A stretch of 64,000 bases of DNA from Candidatus Daviesbacteria bacterium (GCA_016187025.1 JACPKM010000004.1:35212-99211); one strand, 5' to 3'. Shown: positions 1,220-56,869, counted from the first letter of the stretch. Made by a program: numbers and translations. The notes: a model not told the origin generated them from the letters alone.

Positions 1220-1223
1220 ATTT

Positions 1224-3158: not shown

Positions 3159-3169
3159 CTGCTGGTAAC

Positions 3170-3210: not shown

Positions 3211-3226
3211 GGTTTAATTACCAAAC

Positions 3227-3679
3227 TTACTGCAACTCTACAGTTGCACCTGCGGCTGTTAATTTGGTCTTTGCTTCTTCAGCGGTAGCCTTGTTTACTG
3301 ACTCCAAAACCGGTTTTGGAGCAGCCTCTACCAAATCTTTAGCTTCTTTCAAGCCTAAAGTTGGTACAAGTTCTCTCACTGCTTTAATCACTGCAATTTT
3401 ATTGGCGCCTGCGCCCGATAAAATAACATTAAAAGAAGTTTTTTCCTCAACTGGTTCACCTGCTGCAGTACCATTTGAAGGAGCTGCTACAGCGACTGCT
3501 GCTGATGCAGAAACACCAAACTTATCTTCTAATGCATGAACCAAATCAGCTAACTCCAATACAGAGAGTTTTTCGATTGACTCCATGATTTTTTCTAAGT
3601 TAGCAGAAATCTGTTTACCAGCTTTCTTTTCTTCAGCTGGTGACTCTTCGGCTTGTTGGTTTTGTGTATCGTCTGCCAT
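3227..3679 (-). CDS. rplL: 50S ribosomal protein L7/L12
   Basis: Classic L7/L12 sequence ([21 protein letters not shown]...[31 protein letters not shown]...) with a ~25-aa acidic N-terminal extension. Confidence 0.95.
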
Positions 3680-6431: not shown

Positions 6432-6477
6432 CCGGTATTGACATCTTTTCATATTCCTTGGTACGTTTAATATAATA

Positions 6478-22551: not shown

Positions 22552-23667
22552 ATGGCTGTTGAAGTAACTGCACTTTCCAGAAGAAGTTTTTTAGGGATTG
22601 ATTCTGCTTTAGAGGCAGCTAATGACTTTGCTGGAAAAAGCAGAGGAAAACAAGGTCGAAGACCAATTCGTTTATCTTCAGGGTCAACCCCTCCACCTTC
22701 TCGACCAACACCTCCTGATTGGAGGTCAGTAGTTACTTCCAGAAGAGTAGCCCTTGGTGTAACGGCAGGTGGAGCTGCTTTGATTTTACTTCAACCTTGG
22801 CAATGGTTTGTTCGCAGACCTGTACCACCAGACGCTATCCCATCAGTAGTGCCACCAACTCCAGACGCAGAATTAGATCAGGCTTTAATCCGATTAGCCG
22901 AAGCAGAAGTATTTAATTTGGCTTATTATCCAAAAAATTTACGGCAAAAGATGGTCTCTCATTGGAAGTTTGGTCATACAAGTTTAGTCAACTACTCTAA
23001 GCCTAATAGAGAGTTATTTTATTTGGAGTTCAAGCCTGCTCAGCCTCGTGATCAGATGATCAACTTGGCTGCAACTAACATCCAACTCCGCAGGGTTGAG
23101 ACAGCTCCAAACCAAACCTCCCTGGTGCTTTCCCTTCAAGGAGAGTATGTACGATCTCTAGGTGTGGGTATACCACGAGATATTGAAAGAAGGCTTGAAG
23201 AGATGAATTTTGAACATGAAGCCATAGTCAGCCTTGCTTACATAAATGCACTGACCACTATTGCTGGAGCCCTTGGCCTTGATTTAAAAGCTGATAGCCC
23301 TAAGTCTCCAAAAGAAAATGAATTAATCTTAATGGTAAAAGCATATAACCCTGCCATTGTGGCTATGGCAGAAGCAGTAGCAGAAATAAATGATTATCTC
23401 TTAACAGAACCTTTAGTGGATAAAGATCCATCCTCGGGGCAAACAGTTTGGTCTCCTCAGAATTTACCTTTGATAGCACAAGGGATGGTTTTTATGGAAG
23501 GTGGATTACACCATTTGGTAGATTCAGCCATTGGTTCTGCTTTAAAAGGTATACCTGATCTTGAAGTTTTTGCAGGAAGGTATAAGAGCCTAGGGGAGAT
23601 ACCAAACTCTGATCAATATTATCAAAAAATCAAAGAGCATTATCAAAAACATCCGCCAGTTACGTGA
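22552..23667 (+). CDS. hypothetical protein, Pro-rich N-terminal region with SRRSFLG (twin-arginine-like) motif and one hydrophobic segment
   Basis: 371-aa ORF with coding-like composition and GC (~45%) above the local mean. No recognisable catalytic motifs. Confidence 0.5.
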   Translation: MAVEVTALSRRSFLGIDSALEAANDFAGKSRGKQGRRPIRLSSGSTPPPSRPTPPDWRSVVTSRRVALGVTAGGAALILLQPWQWFVRRPVPPDAIPSVVPPTPDAELDQALIRLAEAEVFNLAYYPKNLRQKMVSHWKFGHTSLVNYSKPNRELFYLEFKPAQPRDQMINLAATNIQLRRVETAPNQTSLVLSLQGEYVRSLGVGIPRDIERRLEEMNFEHEAIVSLAYINALTTIAGALGLDLKADSPKSPKENELILMVKAYNPAIVAMAEAVAEINDYLLTEPLVDKDPSSGQTVWSPQNLPLIAQGMVFMEGGLHHLVDSAIGSALKGIPDLEVFAGRYKSLGEIPNSDQYYQKIKEHYQKHPPVT

Positions 23668-26562: not shown

Positions 26563-28380
26563 TCAAAAGAGGGTTTTGGCGTATTCCAGATATTCTGGAC
26601 GGCCATTTTCTTTCATAAAGTACCACCATTCAACTCCCCACAATAAAGCTTTATCAAATCCTATATCTTTGACAAAGGTAATATTTTTGCTAAATTTTGA
26701 TACTGAAAACTGTTTTGTAAGCTGATCAATGGGTACATCTTTGACACTTTGATGTCCTGTAATCCATGGTTCTGCCTGCAACTCAGAGATGAGAATTTCT
26801 TGTTTTAACTTTCCGGCAATAAACTTAGAAATATTTGCCTTTAAGCTATAAAAAACTGATGGAAAAGGGTAATCTACCAGTCCAAAGTAAGGATTCCAGA
26901 CAGTTTTATAAAATGTAGTACCTAAGATATCTGCTCTTTTCCGGGCTTGAATCCAGGTAGATAGCTCACCACTATCTGTTACCATTATTTTTCTGTCATC
27001 TAGGCTTTTAACAGTGTTTATTTCTTGCTCCAGTAGTTTGCTACTAATATCATCCGGAGGGATGCATAGCCCAAAAGGCACAAATGGTTCATTTTCTACC
27101 TGCCAATAGATAATATTAGGATATTTTTTAAAATAGTTTATCTCTTCGTTAACAAGCTTTAAGATTTGTTCGTTTTTGTCTGTTCTGGAAAGATTGGCTG
27201 CCCATTGCGGGGTAAAACACTCCGGCCATCTGGGCTGTTTAAACCCAACTACCAACACTACCTTTACATCTTTTTTTAAACTTTCCTGCAAATAAAAATC
27301 GAGTTTTGAAAAATCCTTTTGCCCTTTAACTTTTTCAACCTCATCCCAATAAACTGGTAAACGCACCAGTTTTACATTCAGGTTATCCAGCATATCTACA
27401 AAAGTTTGCTCAGGATTTAGCTCTAAACTTTGAGCATAGCGGGGAGAAAAGCTTACCCCAAACTCAACTTTAGGTTTGGCAAAGTCAGTAAAAGACAATA
27501 TATAAAGACCGAAGCCGATTAAAATTATGCCAAACAGCTTACCCAGCAAATTTAACTTAGAAAAACTTTCTTTAAATATTTGAGGGTATTTGCGTGCCAG
27601 CATCAAACTAAAGACAAACAAAAATATATACTGTGTGCCTTGTAAAGAATTTACAACAGCTGGATTTGCCAAAGCAACAGAAAAGATTATCAAAAGCTCA
27701 GAAGATCCACCAGCAATCTGGCTTGCTATAAACAATAGTCCAGCAAATGAAATAAGCTTAAAATTGGGGTTATTGTTTCCCGACAGAATTCTTTTTCTTA
27801 GACTTGGAACTAAAACTATAACGAGCCCTAATGGCAGAAGGATAATTCTTGACCAGATAAACACGCTGGTATAGTCATGTTGTAAAAAAGCCTGCCGGAT
27901 TAAAATATATGAGTAGGCAAAAAGAATGGAAGAGGCAATCTCGTAAAAAACCTCTTTTTTGCTGATTCCAACTTTCCAATCAGGTAATGTTAAAAATATT
28001 AGTCCCAGTATCAAAGTAATAACTGCCCAAACCTCATCTATTTTAACTGTTTCCTCAGTAATAGCATGCCCCAGTAGTACCAGGGGAATAAGAGTGCCTA
28101 TGATAGGAATGACTCTGGCAACATGCCCTTTTTGTAAAGCTTTGAACATAAAATATGCCCCAGTAGTCCAAAGGAGGGTTGAGATGGAGGCAAGAAAAAG
28201 GGGAAAAGGTGGTGGGATAGAAGTAAAAGGAAGAGCAGCAAGAGCAATCAGGCTTACCAGACTAAAATAGAAAATATAGACCAAAGGGTCGGGGATATGA
28301 CGAACAAGTAAGAATTTATTAATGGTGACAGCAACAGCATTTAAAAAATATGCTACTATAGCAAAAGGTAGGTGAGACAT
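26563..28380 (-). CDS. polytopic membrane protein with C-terminal clan GH-A (GH5-like) glycoside hydrolase domain
   Basis: ~300-aa multi-TM N-terminus. The C-terminal domain carries YWQVENEPF (acid/base NEP motif) and ISELQAEPW (nucleophile-like). Confidence 0.55.
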   Translation of the reverse strand: MSHLPFAIVAYFLNAVAVTINKFLLVRHIPDPLVYIFYFSLVSLIALAALPFTSIPPPFPLFLASISTLLWTTGAYFMFKALQKGHVARVIPIIGTLIPLVLLGHAITEETVKIDEVWAVITLILGLIFLTLPDWKVGISKKEVFYEIASSILFAYSYILIRQAFLQHDYTSVFIWSRIILLPLGLVIVLVPSLRKRILSGNNNPNFKLISFAGLLFIASQIAGGSSELLIIFSVALANPAVVNSLQGTQYIFLFVFSLMLARKYPQIFKESFSKLNLLGKLFGIILIGFGLYILSFTDFAKPKVEFGVSFSPRYAQSLELNPEQTFVDMLDNLNVKLVRLPVYWDEVEKVKGQKDFSKLDFYLQESLKKDVKVVLVVGFKQPRWPECFTPQWAANLSRTDKNEQILKLVNEEINYFKKYPNIIYWQVENEPFVPFGLCIPPDDISSKLLEQEINTVKSLDDRKIMVTDSGELSTWIQARKRADILGTTFYKTVWNPYFGLVDYPFPSVFYSLKANISKFIAGKLKQEILISELQAEPWITGHQSVKDVPIDQLTKQFSVSKFSKNITFVKDIGFDKALLWGVEWWYFMKENGRPEYLEYAKTLF

Positions 28381-31456: not shown

Positions 31457-33094
31457 TTAATTCGGGGTTTGAAGCTGCCTAATCTGCTCTTGTAACCACA
31501 CAATCTGCTCTGCTATGTCAGAGGGAGGAAGGGGAACATCAACCTCTCCTTCAGCAGAAGATGTTAGCTGTTCTACTAGTCTTTGGTTTGCCCAGGCTGC
31601 ATTTTTGTCCATCCAATCAGCCGTAAAACCTCTTAGCTCTTTCAAGACCTCCCTTGTTGCAGGCATAATTTTTACCCCTTTTTTGGCAAACTGCTCAGAT
31701 GCTTTATCTGAGATATCCCATACAAGCTCTTCAAAAGGTTTTCCAGCCCTAGCTTCTACTAGAGATGATAAGTCTCGGCGGTTTTGCGTTGGCAATATCA
31801 TTAGTAAAGCTCTAATTTGTTGATCTAATACCTGATGTTGCGCAGGATAATGCTCTTTTAAAACTGCCCATATACCTGTTGCAAAACTATTGCTCCCTTC
31901 CATTACATCTAGAAGGTTACTGAGCATCCCTATGTGGTTATCAGCCAATGGAGCTGTGACAGTGTCAATAACTTGAGCCCTAGTTAGTATCTTTTCTAAA
32001 TATAGCGCTAATATTTCAGGGCTGGGGGTAGTTTCCTGTCTGTCTGCAAAAACCTGGATATGGTTTCTTCTGTTGCGGTCCGGGTGTATCTTCCTTCTTT
32101 CCAGCTCTTCTACCAGCTGATCACCTTCAGCTTTTAACTTAAGGATTGTTTGTGGATCAAGGGGGATGGGATGGTATTCTCCGGTAGCTTCTAAAAAGAT
32201 AACTAGGTTTAAAAACGAGTCAATAGGTGCAGGAAATGCTTGTCTTCTTCCTTCTTCAATTGCTGCAATAGTCTTGAGCAGAGCCTGCTTATTTAACCCT
32301 ACCAGGTCATTAAACTCTAAAGTTCTACACTTCAGTGCCTGTCCAATTACTTCTAGCTCATGCTCATCTTTGTCCCATTCAGCTTTGACTATATCATCAT
32401 CTGGAGCCTGGCCCGATTCTTCCGCTTCTTTAAACCATACCGGTTTATTTTCCAAACTGGTAGTTGGAGGATCATTTCGGTTGTACTGAAACAGTCTTGA
32501 AAAATACACATGCTTCACTGCCCAAAACCGCCAATCCTCCATGCCAAATCCTTTAGTGGTAAAACATGCAGGGGGATTATCAAGTACGTTTCTAAATACG
32601 CTATCAAGGCCAAATTTTCTAGCCAGTGGTCCAACTGCCAGATCTCCTAACGCTTCGGCTTTTCTGGTTCTGAGAAGCTCTGTAAACGTAGTAGGTGTAG
32701 CGGGAGAGTTTAAGAGGCAGTTAACAATAAAAGCTTTCTGGAAAAAAGCAAAAGCTTCTTGGTTTGATCCGCCTCTTGATATGATCTCATTCAGAATTTG
32801 GGCGTAAGCTGCAGAGGCGGTAATACGCTCGCTGATCTGTTTTCTTTGTCCACTCAGTGATTCTTTTTGAGCTTTAACTTGTTCTCCTAGCCCATGTATT
32901 TGGTTATCAAAAACATGAGTATAAAGGTCATCTATACCGTCAAACTCCCGACTAAACCTGCTTGCAGCAGCAACCTGCACCCTAGCATTTCTAAGGGTGT
33001 CTCCACTAAAGCGAAATAAACTTAATCGGGTAGGTTGGTCTGGACCCACCCTTGCTCGTGTTAATTCTTCTTCAGCAATAGCCATGGGTAGCAA
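31457..33094 (-). CDS. hypothetical cytoplasmic protein (545 aa), unknown function
   Basis: Long ORF with no TM or signal peptide and GC ~45-48% against ~38-40% locally. I recognise no motifs. Confidence 0.5.
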   Translation of the reverse strand: MLPMAIAEEELTRARVGPDQPTRLSLFRFSGDTLRNARVQVAAASRFSREFDGIDDLYTHVFDNQIHGLGEQVKAQKESLSGQRKQISERITASAAYAQILNEIISRGGSNQEAFAFFQKAFIVNCLLNSPATPTTFTELLRTRKAEALGDLAVGPLARKFGLDSVFRNVLDNPPACFTTKGFGMEDWRFWAVKHVYFSRLFQYNRNDPPTTSLENKPVWFKEAEESGQAPDDDIVKAEWDKDEHELEVIGQALKCRTLEFNDLVGLNKQALLKTIAAIEEGRRQAFPAPIDSFLNLVIFLEATGEYHPIPLDPQTILKLKAEGDQLVEELERRKIHPDRNRRNHIQVFADRQETTPSPEILALYLEKILTRAQVIDTVTAPLADNHIGMLSNLLDVMEGSNSFATGIWAVLKEHYPAQHQVLDQQIRALLMILPTQNRRDLSSLVEARAGKPFEELVWDISDKASEQFAKKGVKIMPATREVLKELRGFTADWMDKNAAWANQRLVEQLTSSAEGEVDVPLPPSDIAEQIVWLQEQIRQLQTPN

Positions 33095-46404: not shown

Positions 46405-47062
46405 CTAATTTATTCTTCTCTGCCCAGTTCCAGGGATCATCGCGCCATTTCAAAATCACTTCTTTTTCTTTTGAGCCGATTAATTTCAGACTCATTGCTT
46501 CATCCACCAGCTCATCTAAATTTGTCAAAGTGAATAAGTTTATACTTTTTTGTTTATATTTTTTAGAAGTATCTTTAAATCCATAATCAAGAAATGCCAA
46601 GCAGGTATTTATTTTTCCTCCTTCTTCCCGGATTGTATCTATTGCAGACAAAGAGCTTTTACCCGTACTAATTAAATCCTCTATCAGCAGTACCTTTGCT
46701 CCTTTTTTCATTACTCCTTCTACCAGTTTTCCTTTACCATGGTCTTTTTTCTCACCTCTGACATAAACCATTGGCAAGTTTAAAAGCTCTGCCAGCCATC
46801 CTGCAGGAGGAATCCCAGCAGTTGATGTGCCGGCAATAACTTCAAAATCAAGTTTATTTTCATCAATTAGATGTGATAGATAAAAAGTGATTTCTTTTCT
46901 TTTTAAAGGATATCCCATCAGCAGTCTGTTGTCTGTATAAATTGGAGAGATAATTCCGGAGACAAATTTGTAAGGTTTGTTAGGGGAAAGGGTGACTGCT
47001 TTAATTTCTAAAAGAATCTTTGCTACTCTTTGTGCTGTACTTAAGCTACTATTCCCTACCAT
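46376..47062 (-). CDS. pyrE: orotate phosphoribosyltransferase
   Basis: PRPP-binding VLLIEDLISTGKS. Confidence 0.85.
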   Translation of the reverse strand: MVGNSSLSTAQRVAKILLEIKAVTLSPNKPYKFVSGIISPIYTDNRLLMGYPLKRKEITFYLSHLIDENKLDFEVIAGTSTAGIPPAGWLAELLNLPMVYVRGEKKDHGKGKLVEGVMKKGAKVLLIEDLISTGKSSLSAIDTIREEGGKINTCLAFLDYGFKDTSKKYKQKSINLFTLTNLDELVDEAMSLKLIGSKEKEVILKWRDDPWNWAEKNKLDEKPKSVDY

Positions 47063-47412
47063 TTCTTCTGCCTTCTCCAGAGGCTCTAGGAGCTACACTG
47101 CAGGGTAAAACGAAAGGTCCATCAATTGGGCTACCAGGAACAAATGATGGAGGTAATAATACACTAAGACCTGACTCAGGGTCTTTAAATATTCTTGCTC
47201 CTGGGATACCTACACGTGCAGTTCGTTCTTCTGTTGCTGAGGCTAAAACGGTTACATTCCATCTTTGACCTCCAGATCTGACGTAATATATAGGTTTGCA
47301 TGCACTTGACTGTTTATTTTCTGCCCCATTAGGGTCTACTTGAACTCGCCCGTTATCTGTCTCTGGCATAGTTTTAGAATTTCCTAATGACTATACGAAA
47401 TAAAAAATTGCT

Positions 47413-48237
47413 TTGTCAAGACATCAATTTAGTGATATATTGGGCAGGATGGAAAAGGTCTTTCCTAATCTTCAACTTTTCTTAATTTTAATTTTGATTT
47501 CTGTACTTATCTTTGCTGGGGATAGTTTTAGGCTGTTTAACTATCCACAACAGGGAGTGTATTTTTTAACAAATCCAATTTCTTTTGGACTATATAACCT
47601 AAAACAAAAAATTGGGAAACAACTCCATTTTATTGTTGCAGCTAGGTTTGCTGCCCAAGAAAATAAAGCTATGCAAAACCAGCTGGCAGGATTGCTATCT
47701 GAAATTGCTCAGTTGAAAAGGAAACTGGCAGAAACCGAGAGCTTGCTTTTACAACAACAACACCTAGATCCCAGAACTTACAATCTAAAAGCGGCAAGGC
47801 CAATTGGTCTTGACAGGTATTTAAGAATAGATAAAGGTGAGCAGGATGGTTTAAAGGTAGGTCAGGCAGTGATTTTTAAAGATAACTATATTGGGAAAAT
47901 CATTAGCATTTCTTCTTCCTCTTCGAATATTCAAATACTTACAGACCCTGATTCTAAAATATCGGCCTTTTCGATAAATAAAAATGGTAAAGCAATGGGT
48001 TTGTTAGCTGGTCAATTTGGCACAGAGACACTTCTTGATAAAATTTTACATGAAGAGGCAGTTGAGGAAGGTGATTTAGTGTATTCAGAGGGTACTGAGG
48101 GGTTTTTACCCAGGGGACTTATTTTAGGAAAAGTAGTTAAAGTTCTGGTAAGAGAAAACGAGGTATTCAAGCAAGCGCAAGTTGTTCCGGTATTGGATAT
48201 CAGGGATTTAGATTTAGTATTTGTTATGACTGAGTAA
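47413..48237 (+). CDS. mreC: rod-shape determining protein MreC
   Basis: N-terminal TM, a coiled coil, then an MreC beta-domain pattern. It precedes the mreD-like and pbp2 genes. Confidence 0.7.
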   Translation: MSRHQFSDILGRMEKVFPNLQLFLILILISVLIFAGDSFRLFNYPQQGVYFLTNPISFGLYNLKQKIGKQLHFIVAARFAAQENKAMQNQLAGLLSEIAQLKRKLAETESLLLQQQHLDPRTYNLKAARPIGLDRYLRIDKGEQDGLKVGQAVIFKDNYIGKIISISSSSSNIQILTDPDSKISAFSINKNGKAMGLLAGQFGTETLLDKILHEEAVEEGDLVYSEGTEGFLPRGLILGKVVKVLVRENEVFKQAQVVPVLDIRDLDLVFVMTE

Positions 48238-48238
48238 T

Positions 48239-48700
48239 ATGAAGACTTTACTGGCTTTACTGATTATTGTTGCTTTTTTGCAGACTACAATTTTGCCATT
48301 CGATTTGGTGGTAGTTATTCTAATATTGCGCTCAGTTGTTAAAGCTGACCAGTTAAATCTATATTTAGGGTTTGGAATGGGTTTGTTGGTTTCTCATCTG
48401 TCTGCTATACCAATTGGAGTAGATAGCATTATATATTTGGTATTAATACAGATTACCAGAAGCTTTGCAAAGTCTCAATTTTCTGAAAATATCTTTTTGT
48501 TTTTGCCTTTGGCTGTTGTACTTTTGATTATCAGTAATGTTTCCAAGGCGTTGATTTTTAATCAGTCGATAAGCTTGTGGCCGGAGGTTGCAACTCAAAT
48601 ACTTTTGGCAATCCCAGTTTACTATGCCCTTAAGCTTTGGGAAGAAAGATTCATCTTTAAAAAAGAGATAAAGTTAAGATATAGTGAAAAGTTTCGTTAA
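48239..48700 (+). CDS. mreD: MreD-like small polytopic membrane protein
   Basis: 153 aa with 4-5 TM helices, between mreC and pbp2. Confidence 0.5.
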   Translation: MKTLLALLIIVAFLQTTILPFDLVVVILILRSVVKADQLNLYLGFGMGLLVSHLSAIPIGVDSIIYLVLIQITRSFAKSQFSENIFLFLPLAVVLLIISNVSKALIFNQSISLWPEVATQILLAIPVYYALKLWEERFIFKKEIKLRYSEKFR

Positions 48701-48712
48701 AGTAAGTTTTTT

Positions 48713-50581
48713 ATGAAGAAGAAAAAAAAATTAGGTTTAGGATTTGCAGATGAAATAGCAAAGGTAAGAGCACAAACAAACCGTTCAGAAAGGTACATAT
48801 CAGCTAATTGGACAGAGAATTTAATCCCAAATTTTAATCCTGAAACATCTGAACTTGAAGGAAAAAATAAATGGGCAGTTACGATCTTTTTATCCTTTGT
48901 GTTATTTGCTTTTTTTATCATTTTTTTAAGGTTATTTCACTTGCAAATTGTGTTAGGAAAGCAAAATAAAGAGTTGGCAGATGGTAACAGAATCCAGGTG
49001 AAAGTTATTCATGCACCACGGGGGGTAATTTATGATAGGAACGGTAAAGTCCTGGCTTCTAATTCCCCTGGATTTAGAGTTTATGATCCGGAAACTAAAA
49101 AAATACGCATATTAGATCGTGAGCATGCTTTTGAAATGGAGGTTAAAAACGATCCTCGAGCCAAAAATCTTGAGGTAGACAATATCAGAAGCTATGCTTT
49201 AGGAGAAACAACTGCACATATAGTAGGATTTTTAGGAGAAATTTCCCAGGACCAACTAAAGCAAGCAACATATAAAACACATAAAGCAGGAGACTGGATT
49301 GGAAAAGAAGGAATAGAGGCTCAATATGAATCTATTTTAAAAGGAATAGATGGTGGAGAAATTATTGAGGTTGATTCAAAGGGTAATAAAATCAGAACGC
49401 TGAGGACAAATGCGCCTATTCCTGGACAAAATATATATTTAACAATTGATGCTGATTTTCAAAAGCTAGTTTTTGAAAAGTTAAAAGAAGCTATACAAAA
49501 ATCTGGGTCTTGCTGTGGATCTGCTCTTTCAGCAGATCCACAAACAGGCCAGATACTTGCTTTGGTGTCTTTCCCCTCTTATGACCCAAATTTGTTTACC
49601 AAAGGAGAAGATGATGGAATTTTGGGCGAGATTTTAACAGACCCCAACTCACCTATTTTAGACAGAGCAATTGGTGGTAGCTATCCGCCTGGTTCTACTT
49701 ATAAGATTATTTCATCAATTGCTGCTTTAGAAAGTGGGAAAGTTACTCCTCAGACTCTGGTTGAAGATACAGGGGTTGTTAATTTGGGTACCTTTAGTTT
49801 TTCAAATTGGTATTTTTCTCAATATGGCAAAACAGAGGGACCTGTTAATTTAGTCAAAGCATTGCAAAGATCAAATGATACATATTTTTATCAAATAAGC
49901 AGACAAATTGGCGAAGAGGCCTTGACGAGTTGGTCCAAAAGTCTATATTTGGGAAAGAAATTAGGAATAGATTTACCAGGAGAGGTTGAAGGTCTGGTTC
50001 CTTCAAATGACTGGAAAAAGCAAACCTTTGGAGAGGTTTGGTATCCAGGAGATACTCTGCATATGTCAATTGGTCAAGGTTTTCTTTTAACAACCCCGGT
50101 GCAGGTTTTAGGTTTTACTTCTTTTATTGCTGCAGATGGAATCTTAAACAAACCCCAGCTTATTTTGAAGGTAACCAGAGGAAATACCGTTACTTCTGAG
50201 TTTAAAACTAAGGTTATCGCCTCAGGTTTGGTTAAGCCAGATAATCTTAAGGTGATAAAAGAGGGATTGGAGCAAGTTGCCAAAAACGGTGGTACAGCCT
50301 GGCCATTTTTTACTTTTCCTATTTCTACTGCAGGTAAAACTGGAACTGCTGAGTTTGGGCATCCCAAAAACAAGACTCATGCTTGGTATACCGCCTATGC
50401 ACCTTCGGATGATCCAAAAATTACTATGACAGTGTTAATAGAAGCAGGAGGTGAAGGGTCTACAAATGCTTCACCTGTGGTCAAGGAAGCTTTCAGATGG
50501 TTTTTCTCACCAGATAAAACTAGCTTATTAAAAGATGTATACCCAGTTTCTACTGAGTCAGCCCAGCAACTGGGAGAATGA
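48713..50581 (+). CDS. mrdA: penicillin-binding protein 2 (class B transpeptidase)
   Basis: N-terminal TM plus a dimerisation domain. Transpeptidase motifs SxxK (GSTYKII), SxN-like and KTGTA. Confidence 0.85.
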   Translation: MKKKKKLGLGFADEIAKVRAQTNRSERYISANWTENLIPNFNPETSELEGKNKWAVTIFLSFVLFAFFIIFLRLFHLQIVLGKQNKELADGNRIQVKVIHAPRGVIYDRNGKVLASNSPGFRVYDPETKKIRILDREHAFEMEVKNDPRAKNLEVDNIRSYALGETTAHIVGFLGEISQDQLKQATYKTHKAGDWIGKEGIEAQYESILKGIDGGEIIEVDSKGNKIRTLRTNAPIPGQNIYLTIDADFQKLVFEKLKEAIQKSGSCCGSALSADPQTGQILALVSFPSYDPNLFTKGEDDGILGEILTDPNSPILDRAIGGSYPPGSTYKIISSIAALESGKVTPQTLVEDTGVVNLGTFSFSNWYFSQYGKTEGPVNLVKALQRSNDTYFYQISRQIGEEALTSWSKSLYLGKKLGIDLPGEVEGLVPSNDWKKQTFGEVWYPGDTLHMSIGQGFLLTTPVQVLGFTSFIAADGILNKPQLILKVTRGNTVTSEFKTKVIASGLVKPDNLKVIKEGLEQVAKNGGTAWPFFTFPISTAGKTGTAEFGHPKNKTHAWYTAYAPSDDPKITMTVLIEAGGEGSTNASPVVKEAFRWFFSPDKTSLLKDVYPVSTESAQQLGE

Positions 50582-50630
50582 AGGTAAGCGTATACTGGAT
50601 GAGGTTGGTAAGTTCTGATAGAATTAAATT

Positions 50631-50996
50631 ATGGGTAAAACTGCTCTATTGATTCTGGTATTGTCAGTAATTTTGATCACCGCTGTTTTAACCATCCTTT
50701 TTTTAACTGATAAGAGTAAGTCGGAGCAGTATCGTCCCGGAGAGAGAAGTGAGATAGATGCTGTAATCAATCAAGCCAAGCATATTTATGGTCTTAGGAA
50801 AAAAGAGGATACTGATTTTTCTCAAGGCCCATGTCTTACTAATGCTTTAATGCCTGGTTGGGTTTTAGATCTGGTTCACAGTCCAAGACTAGAAATTGAT
50901 GACTTGGAAGAAAACCAATGTAAGAGTTTTTTGGAAGGAAGTGCTACTCATTTTGTAGAGCTTGATTTAGAAGGAAATCTGGTCAGAGTACGATAG
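50631..50996 (+). CDS. small membrane-anchored hypothetical protein
   Basis: 121 aa with an N-terminal TM. Confidence 0.35.
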   Translation: MGKTALLILVLSVILITAVLTILFLTDKSKSEQYRPGERSEIDAVINQAKHIYGLRKKEDTDFSQGPCLTNALMPGWVLDLVHSPRLEIDDLEENQCKSFLEGSATHFVELDLEGNLVRVR

Positions 50997-53510
50997 ATGA
51001 ACAAATACTTACTCCTGCCTATCCACTTAATAAAGTTTTGGTACCCAGAGAGTTTGTTTACAATTTTGCGTTCATGGAAAAACACCATTTTATTTTTAGA
51101 AGAAGATTTAGCAGTAATATTGATGTGGAAGCTTTTATTTGTTCCTTTATTTCATGATGCCTCAGTTGTAGGAAGGATACTCAGCTTTCTTTTTAGATTA
51201 ACTAGAATCTTAATCGGGCTTCTTGCCTTTATTGTTTCCTCAGCACTCATTTTATCTTTAGGCCTGTACTGGTTTTTGCTACCATTTTTACAAGTTTTTA
51301 ACTTGGGATTTTTCTCACTAATAAACCAAGCTTTTCTTTTTTCCGGAGTTGGCTTTTTCATTATTCATGTGTTTTTAAATCCTCATAAAAAAGTTTGGCA
51401 AGTACAGGAAAATAGTTTATGGCAAGCATCACAAATTAGTAAAAAAGATTTGTCTTTAAAAAAGCTTTTTAAAAGTCATTTAGTACAAATTCTTATTGAG
51501 CATTTGGAGCTTAAGGTAAAAGACCTTGATTTTTTAAGTTTCCAGGATAAGGATCAGATGGGATTGACTGCATATAATTTAGCAAAAATTACAGAGTCAG
51601 ACTATATAAATGCAAACCATTTTTTTGTAGCTTGTGTTCAAAATAGTCTAAATTACGAAAGCTTGTTGGCCAAATTTGAGCTTTCTTTAGAAGATTTTAT
51701 TGAAACTCTCAAATACCTTGAAAGGAAAAGAAAAGTTTGGAGAGCAAAATATGTCTGGGATGATGATTTTGTAGTACATCATCTAAAAGGCACGAATCGT
51801 GGTTGGCTAGGAGTACCGACTCCTGTTTTAAATCAGATGTCACAAGATTTAACAACACTTGTATCCCAAAAAGAAACTATAGATTATGTTGGAAATGTTA
51901 ATACCATCAAACAGCTCATCAGTAATTTATCCACACAAGGTAATCCCAATGTCATTTTAGTAGGACCACCTGGTTCAGGCAAAAGCGCATTAATTAGTCA
52001 CTTGGCAAAGCAGATTGTGACAGGAGATGCTCCAGAAGCTTTAGCAACCAAAAGGATTGTGCGACTTGATATTACCAGTCTTTTATCTGGAATCAGTACT
52101 CAAGGCCATTTGGCAGAAAGGGTTAAATCTATTTTTGAGGAGATAGGCTTTGCTAAAAACGTTATCTTGGTCATAGATGAGATTCATAATTTGGGAATAG
52201 GTGAGGTTAGTACCCAGATGAATCTTTACTCACTTATGCTGCCCTTTTTAGAATCTTCCAACTTTCAGTTTATTGCAACCACAGATTCTACCTCTTATAG
52301 CAGAATTATTGAAAAAAATGGCAGTTTTGCCAGACTTTTTTCCAAAGTAGAAATTCTTCAGCCCACAGAACAAGAAGTCATGGAGGTACTGGAAAAAAAG
52401 GCAATTTATTATGAAAGAAATGAAAAAGCACAAATTAGTACTCCTGCGCTCAAACTTATTATTCATTTGGCTAAAAGATATATTCATGACAGGTCTTTAC
52501 CAGATTCAGCCCTTAGTGTCTTAGAGCAAGCAGTTGCATATGCAAAAGGAGGTTTGCTAAACCGGGACTTGGTAAAAGAGGTGGTTTCCCACAAGGTTGA
52601 GGTGCCTTTACTTGATATAAAAGAGGCAGACAAGCAAAAGCTACTTAATCTAGAAGATAAAATCCATGAAAGATTAATAGATCAAAATGAGGCTGTGCAT
52701 GCAGTTTCAGATAGTTTAAGAAGATCTGCAACAGGAATAAGAGAAGAAAATAGACCAGCAGGATCGTTTCTGTTTGTCGGTCCAACAGGGGTGGGTAAGA
52801 CTGAGCTTGCCAAGATTTTGGCCGATATATATTTTGAAAAACAGGGTGCTTTTCTCAGGATTGATATGTCTGAGTATCAGAGCAGTGAATCAGTTAATCG
52901 CCTAATAGGCGTTTCAGGGGAAGGGGGAATATTAACAGAAGAGATAAGAAGAAATCCTTACTCGCTCTTGTTGCTTGATGAGTTTGAGAAAGCAGATCCT
53001 AAAATTTTAACTCTCTTTTTGCAAGTTTTGGAAGATGGGAGGTTAACTGATGGAGCAGGTAGACTAGTTGATTTCACCAACACCATAATTATTGCAACAT
53101 CCAATGCAGCTTCTTTAACCATTGCAGATGGTTTAGAGCAAAGCCTTGCCTTAACTGAGATCAATAAAAAAGTAAATACCGAGCTTTTACAGGTATTTAA
53201 GCCTGAACTTGTTAACAGATTTGATGATATTATTATATTTAAACCTTTGTCAAAAGAAGATTTGAGCAAAATAGTTAATTTAAAGCTTAAAGATTTAAAA
53301 ACCAGGTTAAAAGGGCAAGGTTATTTGCTAGATTTTGATAAAGAACTAATTGAAAAGTTAGCAGAAGATGGTTTTGATCCAGTTTTAGGAGCAAGGCCTT
53401 TAAGAAGACTTATTCAAGACAGTTTAGAATCGCAAGTTTCAAAATTAATTTTGGAAAATAAACTAGTTAAAGGACAACCTTTTTCATTAGGAGTTGAATT
53501 ACTAAGATGA
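50997..53510 (+). CDS. membrane-anchored double-AAA+ ATPase of the ClpA/ClpB family (no N-domain, no M-domain, no ClpP-binding loop)
   Basis: N-terminal ~130 aa with 3-4 TM helices. D1 has Walker A GPPGSGKS and Walker B VIDEIH. D2 has GPTGVGKT, LLLDEFEKA and a sensor region (GARPLRR). I see no IGF/IGL tripeptide. The D1-D2 linker is short. Confidence 0.8.
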   Translation: MNKYLLLPIHLIKFWYPESLFTILRSWKNTILFLEEDLAVILMWKLLFVPLFHDASVVGRILSFLFRLTRILIGLLAFIVSSALILSLGLYWFLLPFLQVFNLGFFSLINQAFLFSGVGFFIIHVFLNPHKKVWQVQENSLWQASQISKKDLSLKKLFKSHLVQILIEHLELKVKDLDFLSFQDKDQMGLTAYNLAKITESDYINANHFFVACVQNSLNYESLLAKFELSLEDFIETLKYLERKRKVWRAKYVWDDDFVVHHLKGTNRGWLGVPTPVLNQMSQDLTTLVSQKETIDYVGNVNTIKQLISNLSTQGNPNVILVGPPGSGKSALISHLAKQIVTGDAPEALATKRIVRLDITSLLSGISTQGHLAERVKSIFEEIGFAKNVILVIDEIHNLGIGEVSTQMNLYSLMLPFLESSNFQFIATTDSTSYSRIIEKNGSFARLFSKVEILQPTEQEVMEVLEKKAIYYERNEKAQISTPALKLIIHLAKRYIHDRSLPDSALSVLEQAVAYAKGGLLNRDLVKEVVSHKVEVPLLDIKEADKQKLLNLEDKIHERLIDQNEAVHAVSDSLRRSATGIREENRPAGSFLFVGPTGVGKTELAKILADIYFEKQGAFLRIDMSEYQSSESVNRLIGVSGEGGILTEEIRRNPYSLLLLDEFEKADPKILTLFLQVLEDGRLTDGAGRLVDFTNTIIIATSNAASLTIADGLEQSLALTEINKKVNTELLQVFKPELVNRFDDIIIFKPLSKEDLSKIVNLKLKDLKTRLKGQGYLLDFDKELIEKLAEDGFDPVLGARPLRRLIQDSLESQVSKLILENKLVKGQPFSLGVELLR

Positions 53511-53887
53511 AGATTATTAGTATAACAATTTTAATTTTTATAACCGTTATAACTATTATATTCCCGACCCCGCTTTTTGCTCAGACTAATATTTCAGACG
53601 TAAACCAAAAGGTTTGCAACAGGTTTGAGGACGATGTCAGAAAGTTGGCAGCTATTATGGAGGAGCTCAGACGAAGAAAAGGAATAACAGAAACAAGGGT
53701 TGCGTTTGGTGGAATTGACAACCAAATAGAGTCTGCTGATTATTGGATCACTTATGCTGCAGAGGCTGTAGCATTTCAGAGAGCTCAAAAGTATTCATCT
53801 AGTAATCAACTGCGCTACAGTTTAGAAACCCTAAAAACTAAAATACTAAAAGCAAAAAATGAGGCAAGAAAGGCTTTAAATGATTAG
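53507..53887 (+). CDS. small secreted hypothetical protein
   Basis: Signal-peptide-like start ISITILIFITVITIIFPTPLFA|Q. Confidence 0.4.
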   Translation: MKIISITILIFITVITIIFPTPLFAQTNISDVNQKVCNRFEDDVRKLAAIMEELRRRKGITETRVAFGGIDNQIESADYWITYAAEAVAFQRAQKYSSSNQLRYSLETLKTKILKAKNEARKALND

Positions 53888-54140
53888 ATTAAATTGGGTA
53901 ACCTTCACCATTATTGCAGTAGCTGTGGTTACTTTAGGAACTATTATTAATGTAGGCAAAAGTAAAAACTTAGTTAGTCCAAATCCTGATGAAGCTGATA
54001 GTCAAATTACAACTCCTTCCCCAACTGCTACTCCACAAGTATTTAAACAATATCAATTTGATTCAGCAACAAATTTGGAACAAGAGCTTGACAGCATCAA
54101 TCCGCAGATTTTGGAAACTGATTGGATACTTGACAGATAG
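53880..54140 (+). CDS. small membrane-anchored hypothetical protein
   Basis: 86 aa with an N-terminal TM. Confidence 0.3.
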   Translation: MIRLNWVTFTIIAVAVVTLGTIINVGKSKNLVSPNPDEADSQITTPSPTATPQVFKQYQFDSATNLEQELDSINPQILETDWILDR

Positions 54141-54166
54141 TTTACAATCCCCTTAAGGTTAATTAA

Positions 54167-56161
54167 ATGAACAACTTGGTAATCGTAGAAAGTCCAACCA
54201 AATCAAAAACTTTGCAAAAATTCTTAGGCTCAGGTTATAGAGTTGAGGCCTCCATGGGTCATATTAGGGATTTACCAAAAAGTGATTTTGGAGTTGATAC
54301 AGAAAACGATTTTGAACCTAAATATATTATACCCCGGGATAAAAAAAAGAGGGTAAACGAGTTAAAAAAAACTGCGCAGAATGCTAAAACAATTTGGCTG
54401 GCTACAGACCCTGACCGGGAAGGCGAGGCAATTGCTTGGCATATATCTGAATTAATTAGTAATCCAGAAGCTCAGAACTCAAAGTCTCGTCCAAATATTC
54501 ACCGAGTTGTTTTTCATGAGATTACAGAGGAAGCCATAAAGCAGGCTTTTGATTATCCACGAAGTATAAATATTAAGCTTGTTGATGCGCAGCAAGCCAG
54601 AAGAGTTTTGGATAGACTGGTAGGTTATAAACTATCACCACTTCTATGGAAAAAAGTCAAAAGAGGGTTATCTGCAGGTAGGGTTCAGTCTGTTGCGCTA
54701 AGGCTTATTGTAGAAAGAGAAAAAGAGATTATTGCTTTTAAAACAGAAGAATACTGGACAATTGAGGCTTTGCTGGAAAAACAGGACAAGAGCGCAAGTT
54801 TTTATGCAGAAGTTTTGGAAAAAGATGGCAAAAAAATCACTATCAGTAATCAATCTCAAGCTGAAGGTCATGCCGAAGAGCTAAAAAAGCTTGATTACCA
54901 AATTGAAAAGGTTACTCAAAAGCAGGTAAAAAGATATCCTTATCCGCCCTTTACTACATCAACTTTACAACAAACAGCAGCTTTTAAATTAGGGATGTCT
55001 GCCAAGAAAACCATGAGTATTGCCCAAGCTCTTTATGAAAGAGGATTTATAACTTATATGAGAACAGATTCTGTTAATTTATCAGTATCTGCTGTTTCGG
55101 CAGCCAGAAAATATATTGGTCAAGAAATTGGTTCAAAATACTTGCCTGCTTCTCCCCGGGTTTATAAATCTAAATCAAAAAATGCTCAGGAGGCACACGA
55201 GGCAGTCAGACCTACCAATGTTGGTTTTAAAAGTGAACAGCTAAAATCAGTTGAGGGAATAACCCGTGATCACCTCAGACTTTATGAGCTTATTTGGAAA
55301 AGATTTGTTGCTTGTCAAATGAGTGAGGCAATACTTGACCAAACCAGTGTTGATGTAACAGCTGGGAGCTACAAACTCAGAGCAAGTGGTTCTGTAATTA
55401 AGTTTGAAGGATGGCTGAAGATATTTGGAAAAGATGCGCAAGATGTAAGTGAAGATACAACAGAAGAAAAAAAGTCAAAAAGCCAAGTTCTTCCTTCTTT
55501 ATCAGATGGAGAGATGGTGGATTTGGAGCAAATAACTCCCCAGCAACATTTTACTCAGCCTCCCCCAAGATATTCAGAGGCAACTTTAATTAAAAAGTTA
55601 GAGGAGTTAGGGATAGGCCGTCCTTCTACTTATGCACCAATTCTTTCAACTATTGTAGAGCGTTTTTATGTAGAAAAAGAAAAGAAAAAGCTTATTCCTA
55701 CAAATTTGGGAATGACAGTTACTGAATTTTTGCTGGAGTATTTTTCTGATATTGTTGATTACTCATTCACTGCCCAAATGGAGGATAATTTAGATGATAT
55801 AGCAAAAGGGGAAAGGCAATGGAAACCAATTATAAGAGAGTTTTTCACCCCTTTTGAAAAGAAGATAGAACAAACATCCGAGGTTGCCCAAAAGGTTCAA
55901 ATGGAGATTGAGCATACAGGACGTATGTGTCCTAAATGCGGAAAAGAACTCATTGTGAGAATTGGAAGATTTGGTAAGTTTTTGGCATGTAGTGGATTTC
56001 CTGAATGCAAACATACAGAAAGTGTTGAGGAGAAAGTAAATGTTAAATGTCCTGATTGTGGTGGGGAGATTATCATCAGGAAAACCAAACGTGGTAAGAC
56101 TTTTTATGGATGTAAAAATTGGCCTGGCTGCAAATTTGCTTCTTGGACTAAACCCAAATAA
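54167..56161 (+). CDS. topA: DNA topoisomerase I with two C-terminal zinc ribbons
   Basis: TOPRIM start (LVIVESPTKSKTLQKFLG), type IA core, and Cys4 ribbons CPKCG...CSGFPEC and CPDCG...CKNWPGC. Confidence 0.9.
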   Translation: MNNLVIVESPTKSKTLQKFLGSGYRVEASMGHIRDLPKSDFGVDTENDFEPKYIIPRDKKKRVNELKKTAQNAKTIWLATDPDREGEAIAWHISELISNPEAQNSKSRPNIHRVVFHEITEEAIKQAFDYPRSINIKLVDAQQARRVLDRLVGYKLSPLLWKKVKRGLSAGRVQSVALRLIVEREKEIIAFKTEEYWTIEALLEKQDKSASFYAEVLEKDGKKITISNQSQAEGHAEELKKLDYQIEKVTQKQVKRYPYPPFTTSTLQQTAAFKLGMSAKKTMSIAQALYERGFITYMRTDSVNLSVSAVSAARKYIGQEIGSKYLPASPRVYKSKSKNAQEAHEAVRPTNVGFKSEQLKSVEGITRDHLRLYELIWKRFVACQMSEAILDQTSVDVTAGSYKLRASGSVIKFEGWLKIFGKDAQDVSEDTTEEKKSKSQVLPSLSDGEMVDLEQITPQQHFTQPPPRYSEATLIKKLEELGIGRPSTYAPILSTIVERFYVEKEKKKLIPTNLGMTVTEFLLEYFSDIVDYSFTAQMEDNLDDIAKGERQWKPIIREFFTPFEKKIEQTSEVAQKVQMEIEHTGRMCPKCGKELIVRIGRFGKFLACSGFPECKHTESVEEKVNVKCPDCGGEIIIRKTKRGKTFYGCKNWPGCKFASWTKPK

Positions 56162-56215
56162 CTTACAAGTTAATTACTTATCTTTAGCTCAATTTTAATT
56201 CTATTAAACTAGCAT

Positions 56216-56869
56216 TTGTTTATGGCCAGTTTAGTATTAGGTGTGTTTACAAACGTCTTAAACGCAAAAAATGTTGTTTTGGAATTGGAAAGAAAGGGTT
56301 ATACCCCTTCTCATATTCCTATAATTACCAAAGAAGACGGAAAGGAAAAAATAGTTGTTGAAGAGCAAGGATTAAAAGATATATTCGAGATAGCATTATC
56401 TGGAATGTTTTTAGGAAGCTCAATAGGTGCTATTGTAGGGTTGCTGGTTTCACTTGGTCCCTTACCGGCTCTAAATTTTCTTTTAATAGGAGAACCGGTG
56501 GCGCGCAGTTTAGGGATTGTTAATGGAATGCTTGCAAATATCTTATCTGGTGCAATTACCGGGTTTTTAGTGGGTGGAATTTTAGGAGCAATACTTGCAT
56601 TTATTAACAGCCAGGAACGCTCTGCATTGTTAGAAGACTCAGAAGCTTTAGGGCTGGTTGTTGTTCCTGTAAGAGTGACTGAAGAGGGTGAGGCGCGTTT
56701 AATCATAGAGGAGTTTGGGGCTGACAGTGTCAGAAGAGTGGATTGGACACAAACACAACGGGAGCTAGAGCAAGAAAGCTACAGGGAGGATGAGCATATT
56801 CCTGCTTTTTATCATGATCTTAAATCTGATGAGGATTGGGATAAATTAAAGAAAAAACCTCGCTCCTAA
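56216..56869 (+). CDS. general-stress-protein-17M/YflT-like domain membrane protein
   Basis: N-terminal V.GVF.N...A...V..L...G.....I.II pattern, then a Gly-zipper hydrophobic segment and an acidic C-terminus. Confidence 0.4.
   Translation: MFMASLVLGVFTNVLNAKNVVLELERKGYTPSHIPIITKEDGKEKIVVEEQGLKDIFEIALSGMFLGSSIGAIVGLLVSLGPLPALNFLLIGEPVARSLGIVNGMLANILSGAITGFLVGGILGAILAFINSQERSALLEDSEALGLVVVPVRVTEEGEARLIIEEFGADSVRRVDWTQTQRELEQESYREDEHIPAFYHDLKSDEDWDKLKKKPRS

Follow-up and report, generated by a model that had tools for sequence, protein, structure and literature searches.

What does a two-ring Clp/Hsp100 ATPase do if it sits on a membrane and lacks its pore-loop tyrosines? The question is raised by a gene (50997..53510; plus strand, as are all features specified below) in a 64,000-nucleotide stretch of DNA from a Candidatus Daviesbacteria bacterium, referred to here as the window. 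The 837-aa product is 100% identical to an NCBI protein of Candidatus Daviesbacteria (P0018) that carries only the name "ATP-dependent Clp protease ATP-binding subunit"; its N-terminus (MNKYLLLP...) agrees with the N-termini of more than 100 full-length relatives. It belongs to a class I Clp/Hsp100 subfamily that is specific to CPR/Patescibacteria, and its parts follow one another in the order: membrane module, two membrane helices, divergent Clp N-domain, Trp/Arg-rich linker, D1, D2. Searches of the literature on membrane-anchored Hsp100 proteins, on Clp, ClpB and AAA+ proteins of CPR/Patescibacteria, and on pore-loop loss turned up no description of such a family.

That the protein belongs to the Clp/Hsp100 family and has two AAA+ modules had been noted in a preliminary description made from the DNA sequence alone, and both points hold. 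Pfam identifies AAA (residues 319-440, E 1.5e-21), AAA_lid_9 (458-519, E 1.5e-10), AAA_2 (586-745, E 5.3e-50) and ClpB_D2-small (751-827, E 6.1e-23); NCBIfam models and alignments concur, and a Foldseek search with the full-length AlphaFold2 model (pLDDT 77.9) places ClpC and ClpB at the top (E about 1e-48 to 1e-42). The two tandem modules are those of class I. D1 (aa ~280-520; 51834..52556) has the Walker A sequence GPPGSGKS (323-330) and the Walker B sequence VILVIDEIH (389-397), and its R446 aligns with ClpB R331. Its Walker A and B motifs are variable or lost across the family: the acidic Walker B pair is EE in 38 species and DE in 8, and is lost in the partner ATPases of the split systems to be described below. 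D2 with its D2-small domain (aa 521-837; 52557..53507) has every catalytic motif intact: Walker A (GPTGVGKT, 595-602), Walker B (LLLLDEFEKA, 657-666), sensor 1 (N703), arginine finger (R741) and sensor 2 (GARPLRR, 798-804). These are kept in almost all aligned members, the exceptions being sensor-2 variants in P0155 and P0274 and a C-terminal truncation in L004.

Ahead of this Hsp100 body lies a segment that is predicted to anchor it. Hydropathy and AlphaFold2 monomer models agree with the proposed hydrophobic, membrane-anchoring N-terminus, but they support about two transmembrane helices rather than the three or four originally counted. The first 70 residues (50997..51206), with the motifs FWY (14-16), LEEDLAV..PLFHD (34-54) and GRxLSFxFRxxR (59-70), appear to form a cytoplasmic or interfacial part, marked by invariant residues and recurring as a stand-alone protein; the conserved membrane module as a whole comprises residues ~10-100, which AlphaFold2 models as helices 7-37/52 and 57-100. 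Membrane helix 1 (aa ~71-100; 51207..51296) has a Kyte-Doolittle maximum of 2.54, falls within the second of these modeled helices and includes the conserved W92...P96; the preceding R60, R67 and R70 fit the positive-inside rule. Membrane helix 2 (aa ~105-127; 51309..51377), which is evident in hydropathy and as AlphaFold2 helix 107-127, is followed by H130-K131-K132 and lies past the C-terminal end of the stand-alone homologues. Segment 31-58 holds the invariant E35, E36 and D37, and its counterpart in the stand-alone homologues is charged and amphipathic, so that it probably does not span the membrane. A soluble homologue with the same N-terminus, which would count against an anchor, was not found. 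Pfam and NCBIfam searches with the N-terminal 300 aa and with nine stand-alone proteins gave nothing significant; a homology to PspC was considered (Pfam PspC transmembrane match, E 0.095) and discarded, since hhalign of the module alignment against E. coli PspC returned only 2.5% probability.

The preliminary description had the membrane helices followed by a linker of ~150 aa and no N-domain. Instead, a divergent Clp N-domain (aa ~138-248; 51408..51740) begins about 10 residues past membrane helix 2. AlphaFold2 models the region at pLDDT roughly 85-95 and its best PDB matches are Clp N-domains; sequence support is weak, consisting of a lone match of the family profile in the PDB (the ClpC N-domain 3fes, E 0.33), an hhalign match to the E. 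coli ClpA/ClpB N-domains (E 1.2e-4, probability 55%) and a match to positions 45-145 of the NCBIfam ClpB model (E 0.049); Pfam Clp_N does not match the window ATPase even at E<=10. What is left of the linker (aa 249-279; 51741..51833) is a family-specific motif, W-D-D-D-F....L-K-G-x-N-R-G-W-L-G-x-P-T-P-x-L-N/D, of low pLDDT in the monomer models. It is recognizable in nearly all of the 38 family members that were aligned by MAFFT with E. coli ClpA and ClpB (it is weakest in L005), and is absent from these two reference proteins.

The family can thus be defined, for the purposes of this analysis, by four features, all of which the window ATPase has: the module F-W-Y ... P-L-[FY]-x-D ... G-R-x-x-x-F-x-F-R-x-x-R with a membrane helix, fused to the ATPase or encoded directly upstream; the linker W-[DE]-x-[DE]-[FY] ... 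G-G-[VI]-N-R-x-W ... T-P-x-L-[DN]; neither pore-loop tyrosine; and intact D2 motifs. Named members come from Daviesbacteria, Microgenomates, WWE3, Saccharibacteria and other Patescibacteria, and the Daviesbacteria-type N-terminus is found in at least 92 GTDB species genomes. A search with the module profile gave 192 matches; the best 150 of these include 83 stand-alone proteins (at most 160 aa) and 30 fused ones (at least 770 aa). In other CPR lineages the module is a separate protein of ~110 aa, and in five of the five cases with enough contig its gene lies directly upstream of that of a two-ring Clp-like ATPase. Four of the five are clearly split systems, the two genes overlapping by 4-19 nt. 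(L004 was set aside as a split system: its two ORFs can be connected at a T6 run into one fused reading frame, probably reflecting an assembly frameshift.) Because the module is a separate protein in those lineages, with a gene that runs into the start of the ATPase gene, the Daviesbacteria ATPase is the fused form of a two-gene system. The three readable split-system partner ATPases each have two membrane helices of their own, and those of L014 and the JGI contig match Pfam Clp_N.

The feature on which the question of function turns was overlooked in the preliminary description. Clp/Hsp100 unfoldases have a tyrosine in pore loop 1 of each ring (Y251 and Y653 in ClpB), and the window ATPase has neither. 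Its D1 loop (52086..52109) reads SGISTQGH (364-371) where ClpB has A-G-A-K-Y-R-G-E, with Thr at the position of Y251; MAFFT and, independently, HMMER give this alignment. The KYRG of ClpB is replaced by K[S/T]xG in the family (STQG in the window ATPase), and the column is aromatic in 0 of the 38 members. Of the D2 loop only a remnant is left, R-L-I-G-V-S-G-E-G-G-I-L-T-E (52899..52940), which is six residues shorter than the corresponding 20-residue stretch of ClpB; MAFFT and HMMER both place a 6-residue deletion where a 13-residue ClpB segment has become GVSGEGG, and GYVG is gone. The loop has 7 residues, with GYVG deleted, in all of the ~70 readable Daviesbacteria-type species genomes; elsewhere its length and sequence vary, the tyrosine column being aromatic in only one of the 38 aligned members (37 have no Tyr). 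The loss of the tyrosines is common to the whole family, and is therefore no defect of the window sequence alone.

What, then, might such a ring accomplish? We give roughly even weight to the proposition that the ATPase is a CPR-specific, membrane-tethered Hsp100 variant that remodels some client in the membrane or envelope by means other than canonical threading. The predicted hexamer would lie on the cytoplasmic face of the membrane, its N-domain ring and D1 entrance turned toward the bilayer because the stretch between membrane helix 2 and the N-domain is only ~10 residues long. D2 would be the ATP-hydrolyzing motor, and D1, degenerate in many relatives, would serve mainly to bind nucleotide and to support assembly. 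With both aromatics lost across the family and a D2 loop that is either gone or free to vary, processive translocation of polypeptides by the ring is improbable; the argument is from missing pore-loop motifs. ATP-driven movements of the ring would instead be transmitted through N-domain, linker and membrane module, and the outcome would be the remodeling, assembly or release of a membrane-embedded or envelope-associated client, for which the small membrane and secreted proteins co-encoded in Daviesbacteria are candidates. The conserved D1 loop could still be engaging something. By loose analogy, the scheme resembles what has been proposed for Torsins. A more ambitious version, which we advance tentatively and would not bet on, is that these proteins constitute an unrecognized CPR class of Hsp100, a two-ring membrane ATPase with a small membrane subunit, in which D2 does its work in a Torsin-like manner, without threading. 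As the family is found in several CPR lineages, often among genes of cell envelope and division, it may have a core role in envelope biogenesis or in a surface structure of these ultra-small, host-dependent cells.

The chief alternative is the one that the preliminary description put forward in calling the protein a membrane-associated unfoldase or disaggregase: a canonical threading machine at the membrane, drawing membrane or secreted proteins from the bilayer into an axial channel in the manner of an Msp1 or FtsH without a protease, its tyrosines replaced by polar pore loops. The Hsp100 body is, after all, complete and D2 catalytically intact; AlphaFold2 models put the N-domain and the D1 entrance beside the membrane; the D1 loop K-[S/T]-x-G-E is fairly well conserved in the fused forms; and small membrane-anchored proteins are co-encoded. 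Contact with substrate is possible with non-aromatic pore loops too, as in D1 of p97/Cdc48. Against this stands, first, the D2 loop itself: deleted or variable as it is, it is under no constraint as a substrate-binding element. In ClpB, by comparison, the pore-loop tyrosines contact substrate and the D2 tyrosine Y653 is essential for disaggregation (PMC6593972). Second, the aromatic position of D1 has been vacated throughout the family, and D1, whose loop alone is conserved, has degenerate catalytic motifs in many members. Threading therefore seems unlikely, and the label "unfoldase or disaggregase" is undermined.

A second alternative assigns the ATPase a narrower task, that of a dedicated factor for the assembly or turnover of its small membrane-anchored or pilin-like neighbors, in the service of envelope, pilus or competence: in Daviesbacteria the clients would be proteins of 121, 126 and 86 aa, and in another lineage prepilin-type proteins. 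The small membrane or secreted proteins that had been noted on both sides of the gene are indeed there, each with an N-terminal hydrophobic helix and each conserved in relatives. The upstream 121-aa protein (50631..50996), which has a membrane helix at its N-terminus as well as a two-Cys domain and matches nothing in Pfam or NCBIfam, is 55% identical to a 139-aa neighbor in L007; its ORF ends where the ATPase ORF starts, and in 67 of 80 species genomes it is the ORF immediately before the ATPase, on the same strand. Downstream, a 126-aa protein with a signal-peptide-like N-terminus (53507..53887; 61% identity in L007; detected in 42 of the 80 genomes) has a start that overlaps the ATPase stop (ATGA), and an 86-aa protein with an N-terminal membrane helix (53880..54140; 41% identity in L007; detected in 37 of the 80) follows with an 8-nt overlap. 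Abutting and overlapping stops and starts of this kind suggest translational coupling. (A promoter/terminator scan of 47000-56500 gave counts no higher than those of shuffled sequence and is consequently uninformative about operon boundaries. The GC-richer 350-nt gap at 47063-47412 was considered as an RNA gene and rejected, with no Rfam match at E<=1 and fold z-scores of -0.07 and -0.49.) The wider setting could also be read in favor of such a factor: the Daviesbacteria locus lies between mreCD-PBP2-dprA and topA, ftsEX and an M23 peptidase gene are near family members in two other lineages, and in L014 and the JGI contig the gene of the split ATPase is followed at once by two genes of prepilin type (FTLIELL N-termini). 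But the small neighbors are lineage-specific, with no homologues at the WWE3 or other Patescibacteria loci that were examined; the two pilin contexts are syntenic, with SecG upstream and DHH downstream in both, and therefore probably represent one lineage; and dprA-topA adjacency is common in bacteria, so that the Daviesbacteria context may be incidental. Gene neighborhoods differ between lineages, and the client thus cannot be inferred from conserved context. We consider an ATPase dedicated to these particular neighbors quite improbable.

A nucleic-acid motor, for example one for DNA uptake, in which a polar pore would suit DNA rather than protein, deserves hardly any credence. It would draw on the polar, non-aromatic pore loops, on the presence, in most Daviesbacteria-type genomes, of dprA just upstream of the ATPase and of topA downstream, and on the dprA, RmuC, RadC or PolX genes that lie near family members elsewhere; yet what is left of the D2 loop is acidic and rich in glycine (GSGEGG, ENPGE), neither loop has conserved basic residues, the window lacks dprA at this position, and Clp/Hsp100 members are not known to translocate nucleic acid.

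The name given in the database implies yet another function, that of an unfoldase subunit of a membrane-bound Clp protease. The helix-loop-helix of D2 at the position of the ClpA IGL loop (53124..53159; helix 706-714, loop 715-718 and helix 719-733 in the AlphaFold2 model) has the tip E-Q-S-L-A, and neither a regular-expression scan nor alignments find the tripeptide [LIVM]-G-[FL] anywhere in D2, confirming the suspicion that a ClpP-docking loop is absent. Although its NCBI name and its ClpA-like N-D1-D2 layout without an M-domain would suit it to ClpP, the ATPase is scarcely credible as such a subunit, having the tip QSLA in place of the docking tripeptide, no pore-loop tyrosines with which to feed a protease, a score of 432.6 bits with the ClpA equivalog TIGR02639 (cut-off 993.15), and clpP adjacent at none of the loci examined. 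Pfam scans of its neighbors and of ten of the larger ORFs in the window found no Clp component.

The preferred reading, remodeling without canonical threading, has some bearing beyond this locus. Hsp100/Clp proteins are the standard example of threading by pore-loop tyrosines, and the family would be a natural experiment in doing without it: the two-ring body and a competent D2 have been kept under selection in at least 92 species despite the loss of the tyrosines. It may provide a bacterial system for the Torsin-type mechanism, which is still unsettled. It also amounts to a conserved, lineage-specific membrane machine of the CPR that databases label a "Clp protease ATP-binding subunit", a label that is likely to mislead reconstructions of metabolism and proteostasis.

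How does the ATPase compare with the known systems? With E. coli ClpA it shares the order N-domain, D1, D2, the short D1-D2 junction and the absence of an M-domain (the alignment with ClpA runs unbroken over residues 277-827); it differs in having neither the IGL docking loop nor pore-loop tyrosines, and in its additional membrane module, two membrane helices and conserved linker motif. ClpB/Hsp104 is the best match in sequence, by virtue of D2 (PDB ClpB, E 1.7e-120), has a similar N-domain fold and also lacks the ClpP loop. However, ~115 ClpB residues have no counterpart in the window ATPase, which is predicted to be membrane-anchored, has Thr in place of Y251 and has the Y653 loop deleted; the ClpB equivalog TIGR03346 matches in two stretches with 499.5 bits (cut-off 1232.1). 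The absence of a ClpB-type M-domain had been correctly anticipated, and implies that the ATPase is not ClpB-like, that an M-domain is not available to link it to Hsp70, and that it is probably not Hsp70-coupled. PDB chains of ClpC and ClpE likewise match in two stretches that skip the M-domain, the D2 segment of ClpC being 13 residues longer; the short M-domain of ClpC, ClpE and ClpL and the (V/I/L)GF ClpP loop of ClpC and ClpE are both absent. ClpV/TssH is a soluble protein of T6SS clusters that carries an M-domain and, in D2, a pore-loop tyrosine. None of this holds for the window ATPase, which scores 392.4 with TIGR03345 (cut-off 884.95); T6SS genes were found neither around it in the window nor at the related loci examined.

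In FtsH and Msp1/ATAD1, too, an N-terminal membrane anchor sets a hexameric AAA+ ring on the cytoplasmic face of a membrane, but theirs is a single ring of the classic AAA clade with aromatic pore loops; to FtsH belongs, in addition, an M41 peptidase domain, and Pfam Peptidase_M41 has no match in the window ATPase. ClpI of the Actinomycetota provides a precedent for a double-ring Clp class recognized from bioinformatics alone, whose N-domain varies and of which some sub-classes lack a ClpP-binding motif (PMC10149685); the present family differs from it in its lost pore-loop motifs and in its predicted membrane anchor. A parallel in mechanism may be with the Torsins of the eukaryotic ER and nuclear envelope, which are Hsp100-related, membrane-associated and devoid of aromatic pore loops, so that processive threading is improbable for them (PMC5425593). 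It is an analogy and not membership, and a partial one, because Torsins are lumenal proteins that have one AAA+ domain and depend on LAP1 or LULL1 for their arginine finger, whereas the window ATPase has two rings, must be cytoplasmic and keeps R446 and R741. What the two have in common is the absence of aromatic pore loops, an association with membranes (predicted here) and, in the Torsins' dedicated membrane-protein cofactors, something that recalls the separate or fused membrane module of the CPR family.

The open reading frame at 50997-53510 of the window (+ strand) is genuine, and its 837-aa product, here called the ATPase, is identical to an NCBI protein named [quoted passage not shown]. 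Full-length relatives (~835 aa, 55-67% identity, 100% coverage), over 100 of them, occur in Daviesbacteria, Microgenomates and Patescibacteria assemblies, which places the window in a CPR bacterium. Pfam assigns AAA to aa 319-440, AAA_lid_9 to 458-519, AAA_2 to 586-745 and ClpB_D2-small to 751-827, and matches nothing in residues 1-300. The top NCBIfam models are ClpB (499.5 bits, in two stretches), ClpA (432.6 bits, in the single stretch 277-827) and ClpV (392 bits), all with scores far under their equivalog cut-offs. The AlphaFold2 model of the full-length protein (pLDDT 77.9) has ClpC and ClpB as its top Foldseek matches: at the level of fold and domains the ATPase is a member of the Hsp100 family.

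The pore loops of the two AAA+ modules, D1 and D2, set it apart. Aligned with E. coli ClpA and ClpB (from NC_000913), the D1 loop reads S-G-I-S-T-Q-G-H in place of A-G-A-K-Y-R-G-E, and a D2 segment of 20 residues in ClpA/ClpB is reduced by six, to R-L-I-G-V-S-G-E-G-G-I-L-T-E, without GYVG; HMMER alignment to PDB ClpB independently gives the same result for both loops. Across 38 family members, split-system ATPases (see below) included, no aromatic residue occupies the D1 tyrosine column (17 have Thr, 9 Ser), a single member has Tyr at the D2 column, and the D2 loop is either deleted or differs between members in length and composition; every one of ~70 Daviesbacteria-type species genomes has a D2 segment of 7 residues that is acidic or glycine-rich. 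In ClpB the pore-loop tyrosines touch the substrate backbone; disaggregation requires Y653, while Y251A retains partial activity (PMC6593972). With the essential element deleted and no conservation in what is left of it, the ATPase is unlikely to work by processive threading of polypeptides. The main rival, that it is still a threading extractase which grips its substrates with polar loops, would make use of the catalytically intact D2 described below; set against these loop sequences it is doubtful, though the least improbable of the alternatives.

The preliminary description had denied the ATPase an M-domain and a ClpP-docking loop, and in both respects it was right: the ~115-residue M-domain of ClpB is unmatched in the alignment, the helix-loop-helix tip of D2 reads Q-S-L-A where ClpA has I-G-L, and a regular-expression scan finds [LIVM]-G-[FL] nowhere in D2. 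M-domain, ClpP-docking loop and both pore-loop tyrosines are absent. A partnership with ClpP, which the database name would imply, is unlikely for a D2 with such a tip. That this Hsp100-type protein might instead be a nucleic-acid motor is likewise unlikely.

D2 is otherwise well equipped: Walker A, Walker B (LLDE[FIV]EKA), the sensor 1 Asn, the Arg finger (N-R-F) and sensor 2 (G-A-R-P) are kept in almost all members. D1 of the window's ATPase retains Walker A, a D-E pair and Arg446 (at the position of ClpB R331), and by this pair it belongs to a minority: the acidic pair of the D1 Walker B is E-E in 38 Daviesbacteria-type species and D-E in 8, the window among the latter, and the replacement suggests a change in D1 hydrolysis across most of this clade. 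Split-system partner ATPases have lost the D1 Walker B, and one of them (at L014, a related locus on another CPR contig) lacks Walker A also. Judged by these motifs, D2 is intact in the family and D1 is degenerating.

The region before D1 had been read as 3-4 transmembrane helices followed by a ~150-aa linker, with no N-domain. Its hydrophobicity is indeed strong; hydropathy and two AlphaFold2 models (of the monomer) favour two membrane helices (~71-100 and 105-127) over three or four. Arg60, Arg67 and Arg70 precede the first and His130-Lys131-Lys132 follow the second, as expected of an N-in topology in which the ATPase modules are cytoplasmic; residue ~102 would then lie outside and residue ~135 inside. 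The less hydrophobic stretch 31-58, with its invariant Glu35, Glu36 and Asp37, is probably interfacial, since its equivalent in stand-alone homologues of this membrane module is charged and amphipathic. The supposed linker proved to be in large part a domain: residues ~138-248 form a compact helical unit in the AlphaFold2 model (pLDDT roughly 85-95). The family profile, run against PDB sequences at E<=10, finds the ClpC N-domain as its sole match; an hhalign comparison of the family with the E. coli ClpA/B N-domains has E 1.2e-4; positions 45-145 of the NCBIfam ClpB model match at E 0.049; and Pfam Clp_N is found in the partner ATPases of two split systems (L014 and a JGI contig). This sequence support is weak but consistent; taken with the compact fold, it means that the ATPase possesses a divergent N-domain, tethered ~10 residues past membrane helix 2. 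Between N-domain and D1 lies a Trp/Arg-rich motif of ~30 residues (W-D-D-D-F...G-x-N-R-G-W-L-G-x-P-T-P-x-L-D), detectable in nearly all family members and not in ClpA or ClpB; in the window's ATPase it includes W254, F258 and W270.

The N-terminal membrane module also exists by itself. A profile of residues 1-~250, searched against 1.84 billion representative proteins, gives 192 matches, and the best 150 of these include 30 fused proteins of ~780-880 aa and 83 proteins of <=160 aa that align solely to profile positions ~10-100. The small proteins, for which no Pfam or NCBIfam model was found, share the motifs F-x-x-W-Y, L-[DE]-x-x-x-A, P-L-[FY]-x-D, G-[RY] and F-R-x-x-R, the last followed by a hydrophobic stretch with W-x-x-x-P. 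Wherever enough contig sequence is available (5 of 5 cases), the small gene lies directly 5' of a gene for a two-ring Clp-like ATPase, and at L005/L006 (an arrangement seen on 20 contigs), L014, L015 and the JGI contig it overlaps that gene by 4-19 nt. At L005 the pair occupies 6001-6360 and 6342-8864. The three partner ATPases that could be read each have two N-terminal membrane helices of their own. (The fifth case, L004, resembles a split system, with module and ATPase frames at 929-3227 overlapping in a stretch of six T; continued through this stretch in the +1 frame, translation gives one unbroken fused protein, so that an assembly frameshift probably broke a fusion here.) From the gene order of the split lineages, the Daviesbacteria ATPase is the fused form of a conserved two-gene system. 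The family is conserved across several CPR lineages: named members come from Daviesbacteria, Microgenomates, candidate division WWE3, Saccharibacteria and unclassified Patescibacteria, and the Daviesbacteria-type N-terminus occurs in at least 92 GTDB species genomes. Among the lineages compared, the membrane module is the only universal partner of the ATPase.

Other neighbours are less constant. The small flanking frames are real genes, as had been supposed: those for the 121-, 126- and 86-aa proteins (50631-50996, 53507-53887 and 53880-54140, all +) encode products 55, 61 and 41% identical to those of a relative with a 57%-identical ATPase, and they lie on the ATPase strand in 67, 42 and 37 of 80 species genomes, respectively. 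The first ends with its stop codon directly against the start codon of the ATPase; those downstream overlap by 4 and 8 nt. The consensus Daviesbacteria-type order is mreC, mreD, PBP2, dprA, 121-aa protein, ATPase, 126-aa protein, 86-aa protein, topA; dprA is in place in 66 of the 80 genomes and absent there from the window, where a 49-nt spacer (50581-50631) implies that it is missing or elsewhere in the genome. (Some 40 of these 80 records bear the title [quoted passage not shown]; given their Daviesbacteria gene order, the titles look like placeholders or mislabels.) The WWE3 locus has an S24/S26-like peptidase upstream and a NUDIX gene downstream; L004 and L010 have RF-1, ftsE, ftsX and an M23 peptidase gene downstream, and L011 a class A PBP nearby. 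At L014 (3640-4679) and in JGI 3300050046 (5796-6865) two prepilin-type genes lie directly 3' of the split-form ATPase (N-termini FTLIELLV and FLLIELLI at L014), with SecG upstream and a DHH phosphoesterase downstream in both. Cell-envelope genes thus recur near family members, inconsistently.

The window also encodes pyrimidine biosynthesis genes and an F-type ATPase, which with mreC, mreD, PBP2 and topA is consistent with a CPR bacterium. Between topA and CTP synthase, a 217-aa protein (56216-56869, +) combines a weak N-terminal match to YflT-like heat-induced stress proteins (E 6.8e-5, under the Pfam cut-off) with a glycine-rich hydrophobic region after it. The 350-nt gene-free gap at 47063-47412, from a pyrE-like gene (-) to mreC (+), has a GC content of 0.42-0.47 against ~0.36 locally; Rfam finds nothing in it even at E<=1, and with RNA fold z-scores of -0.07 and -0.49 nothing points to structured RNA. 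At E<=1e-5 the sole Pfam match in a 2746-aa frame (6478-14718, +) is an intein splicing domain (aa 526-826), and the frames at 1224-3158, 22552-23667, 26563-28380 and 31457-33094 (644, 371, 605 and 545 aa) have none.

What might such a motor do? The analysis is computational throughout, with oligomeric state and ATPase activity assumed from homology. The ATPase would assemble as a hexamer at the cytoplasmic side of the membrane, its N-domain and D1 side toward the bilayer and D2 its motor. As a working model, given roughly even odds, it may use ATP to remodel, assemble or release a membrane or envelope client by way of N-domain, linker and membrane module.

A full-text literature search found no prior description of the family; databases label its proteins generically and hold no family model for the membrane module. 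New Clp classes can be defined bioinformatically, as ClpI was in 2023; ClpI, in contrast to this family, keeps its unfolding motifs and M-domain (PMC10149685). The closest mechanistic analogy may be with the Torsins, which are likewise Hsp100-related, membrane-associated and devoid of aromatic pore loops, and for which processive threading has been judged improbable on that account (PMC5425593). Unlike the ATPase, Torsins have a single ring and lack an arginine finger.
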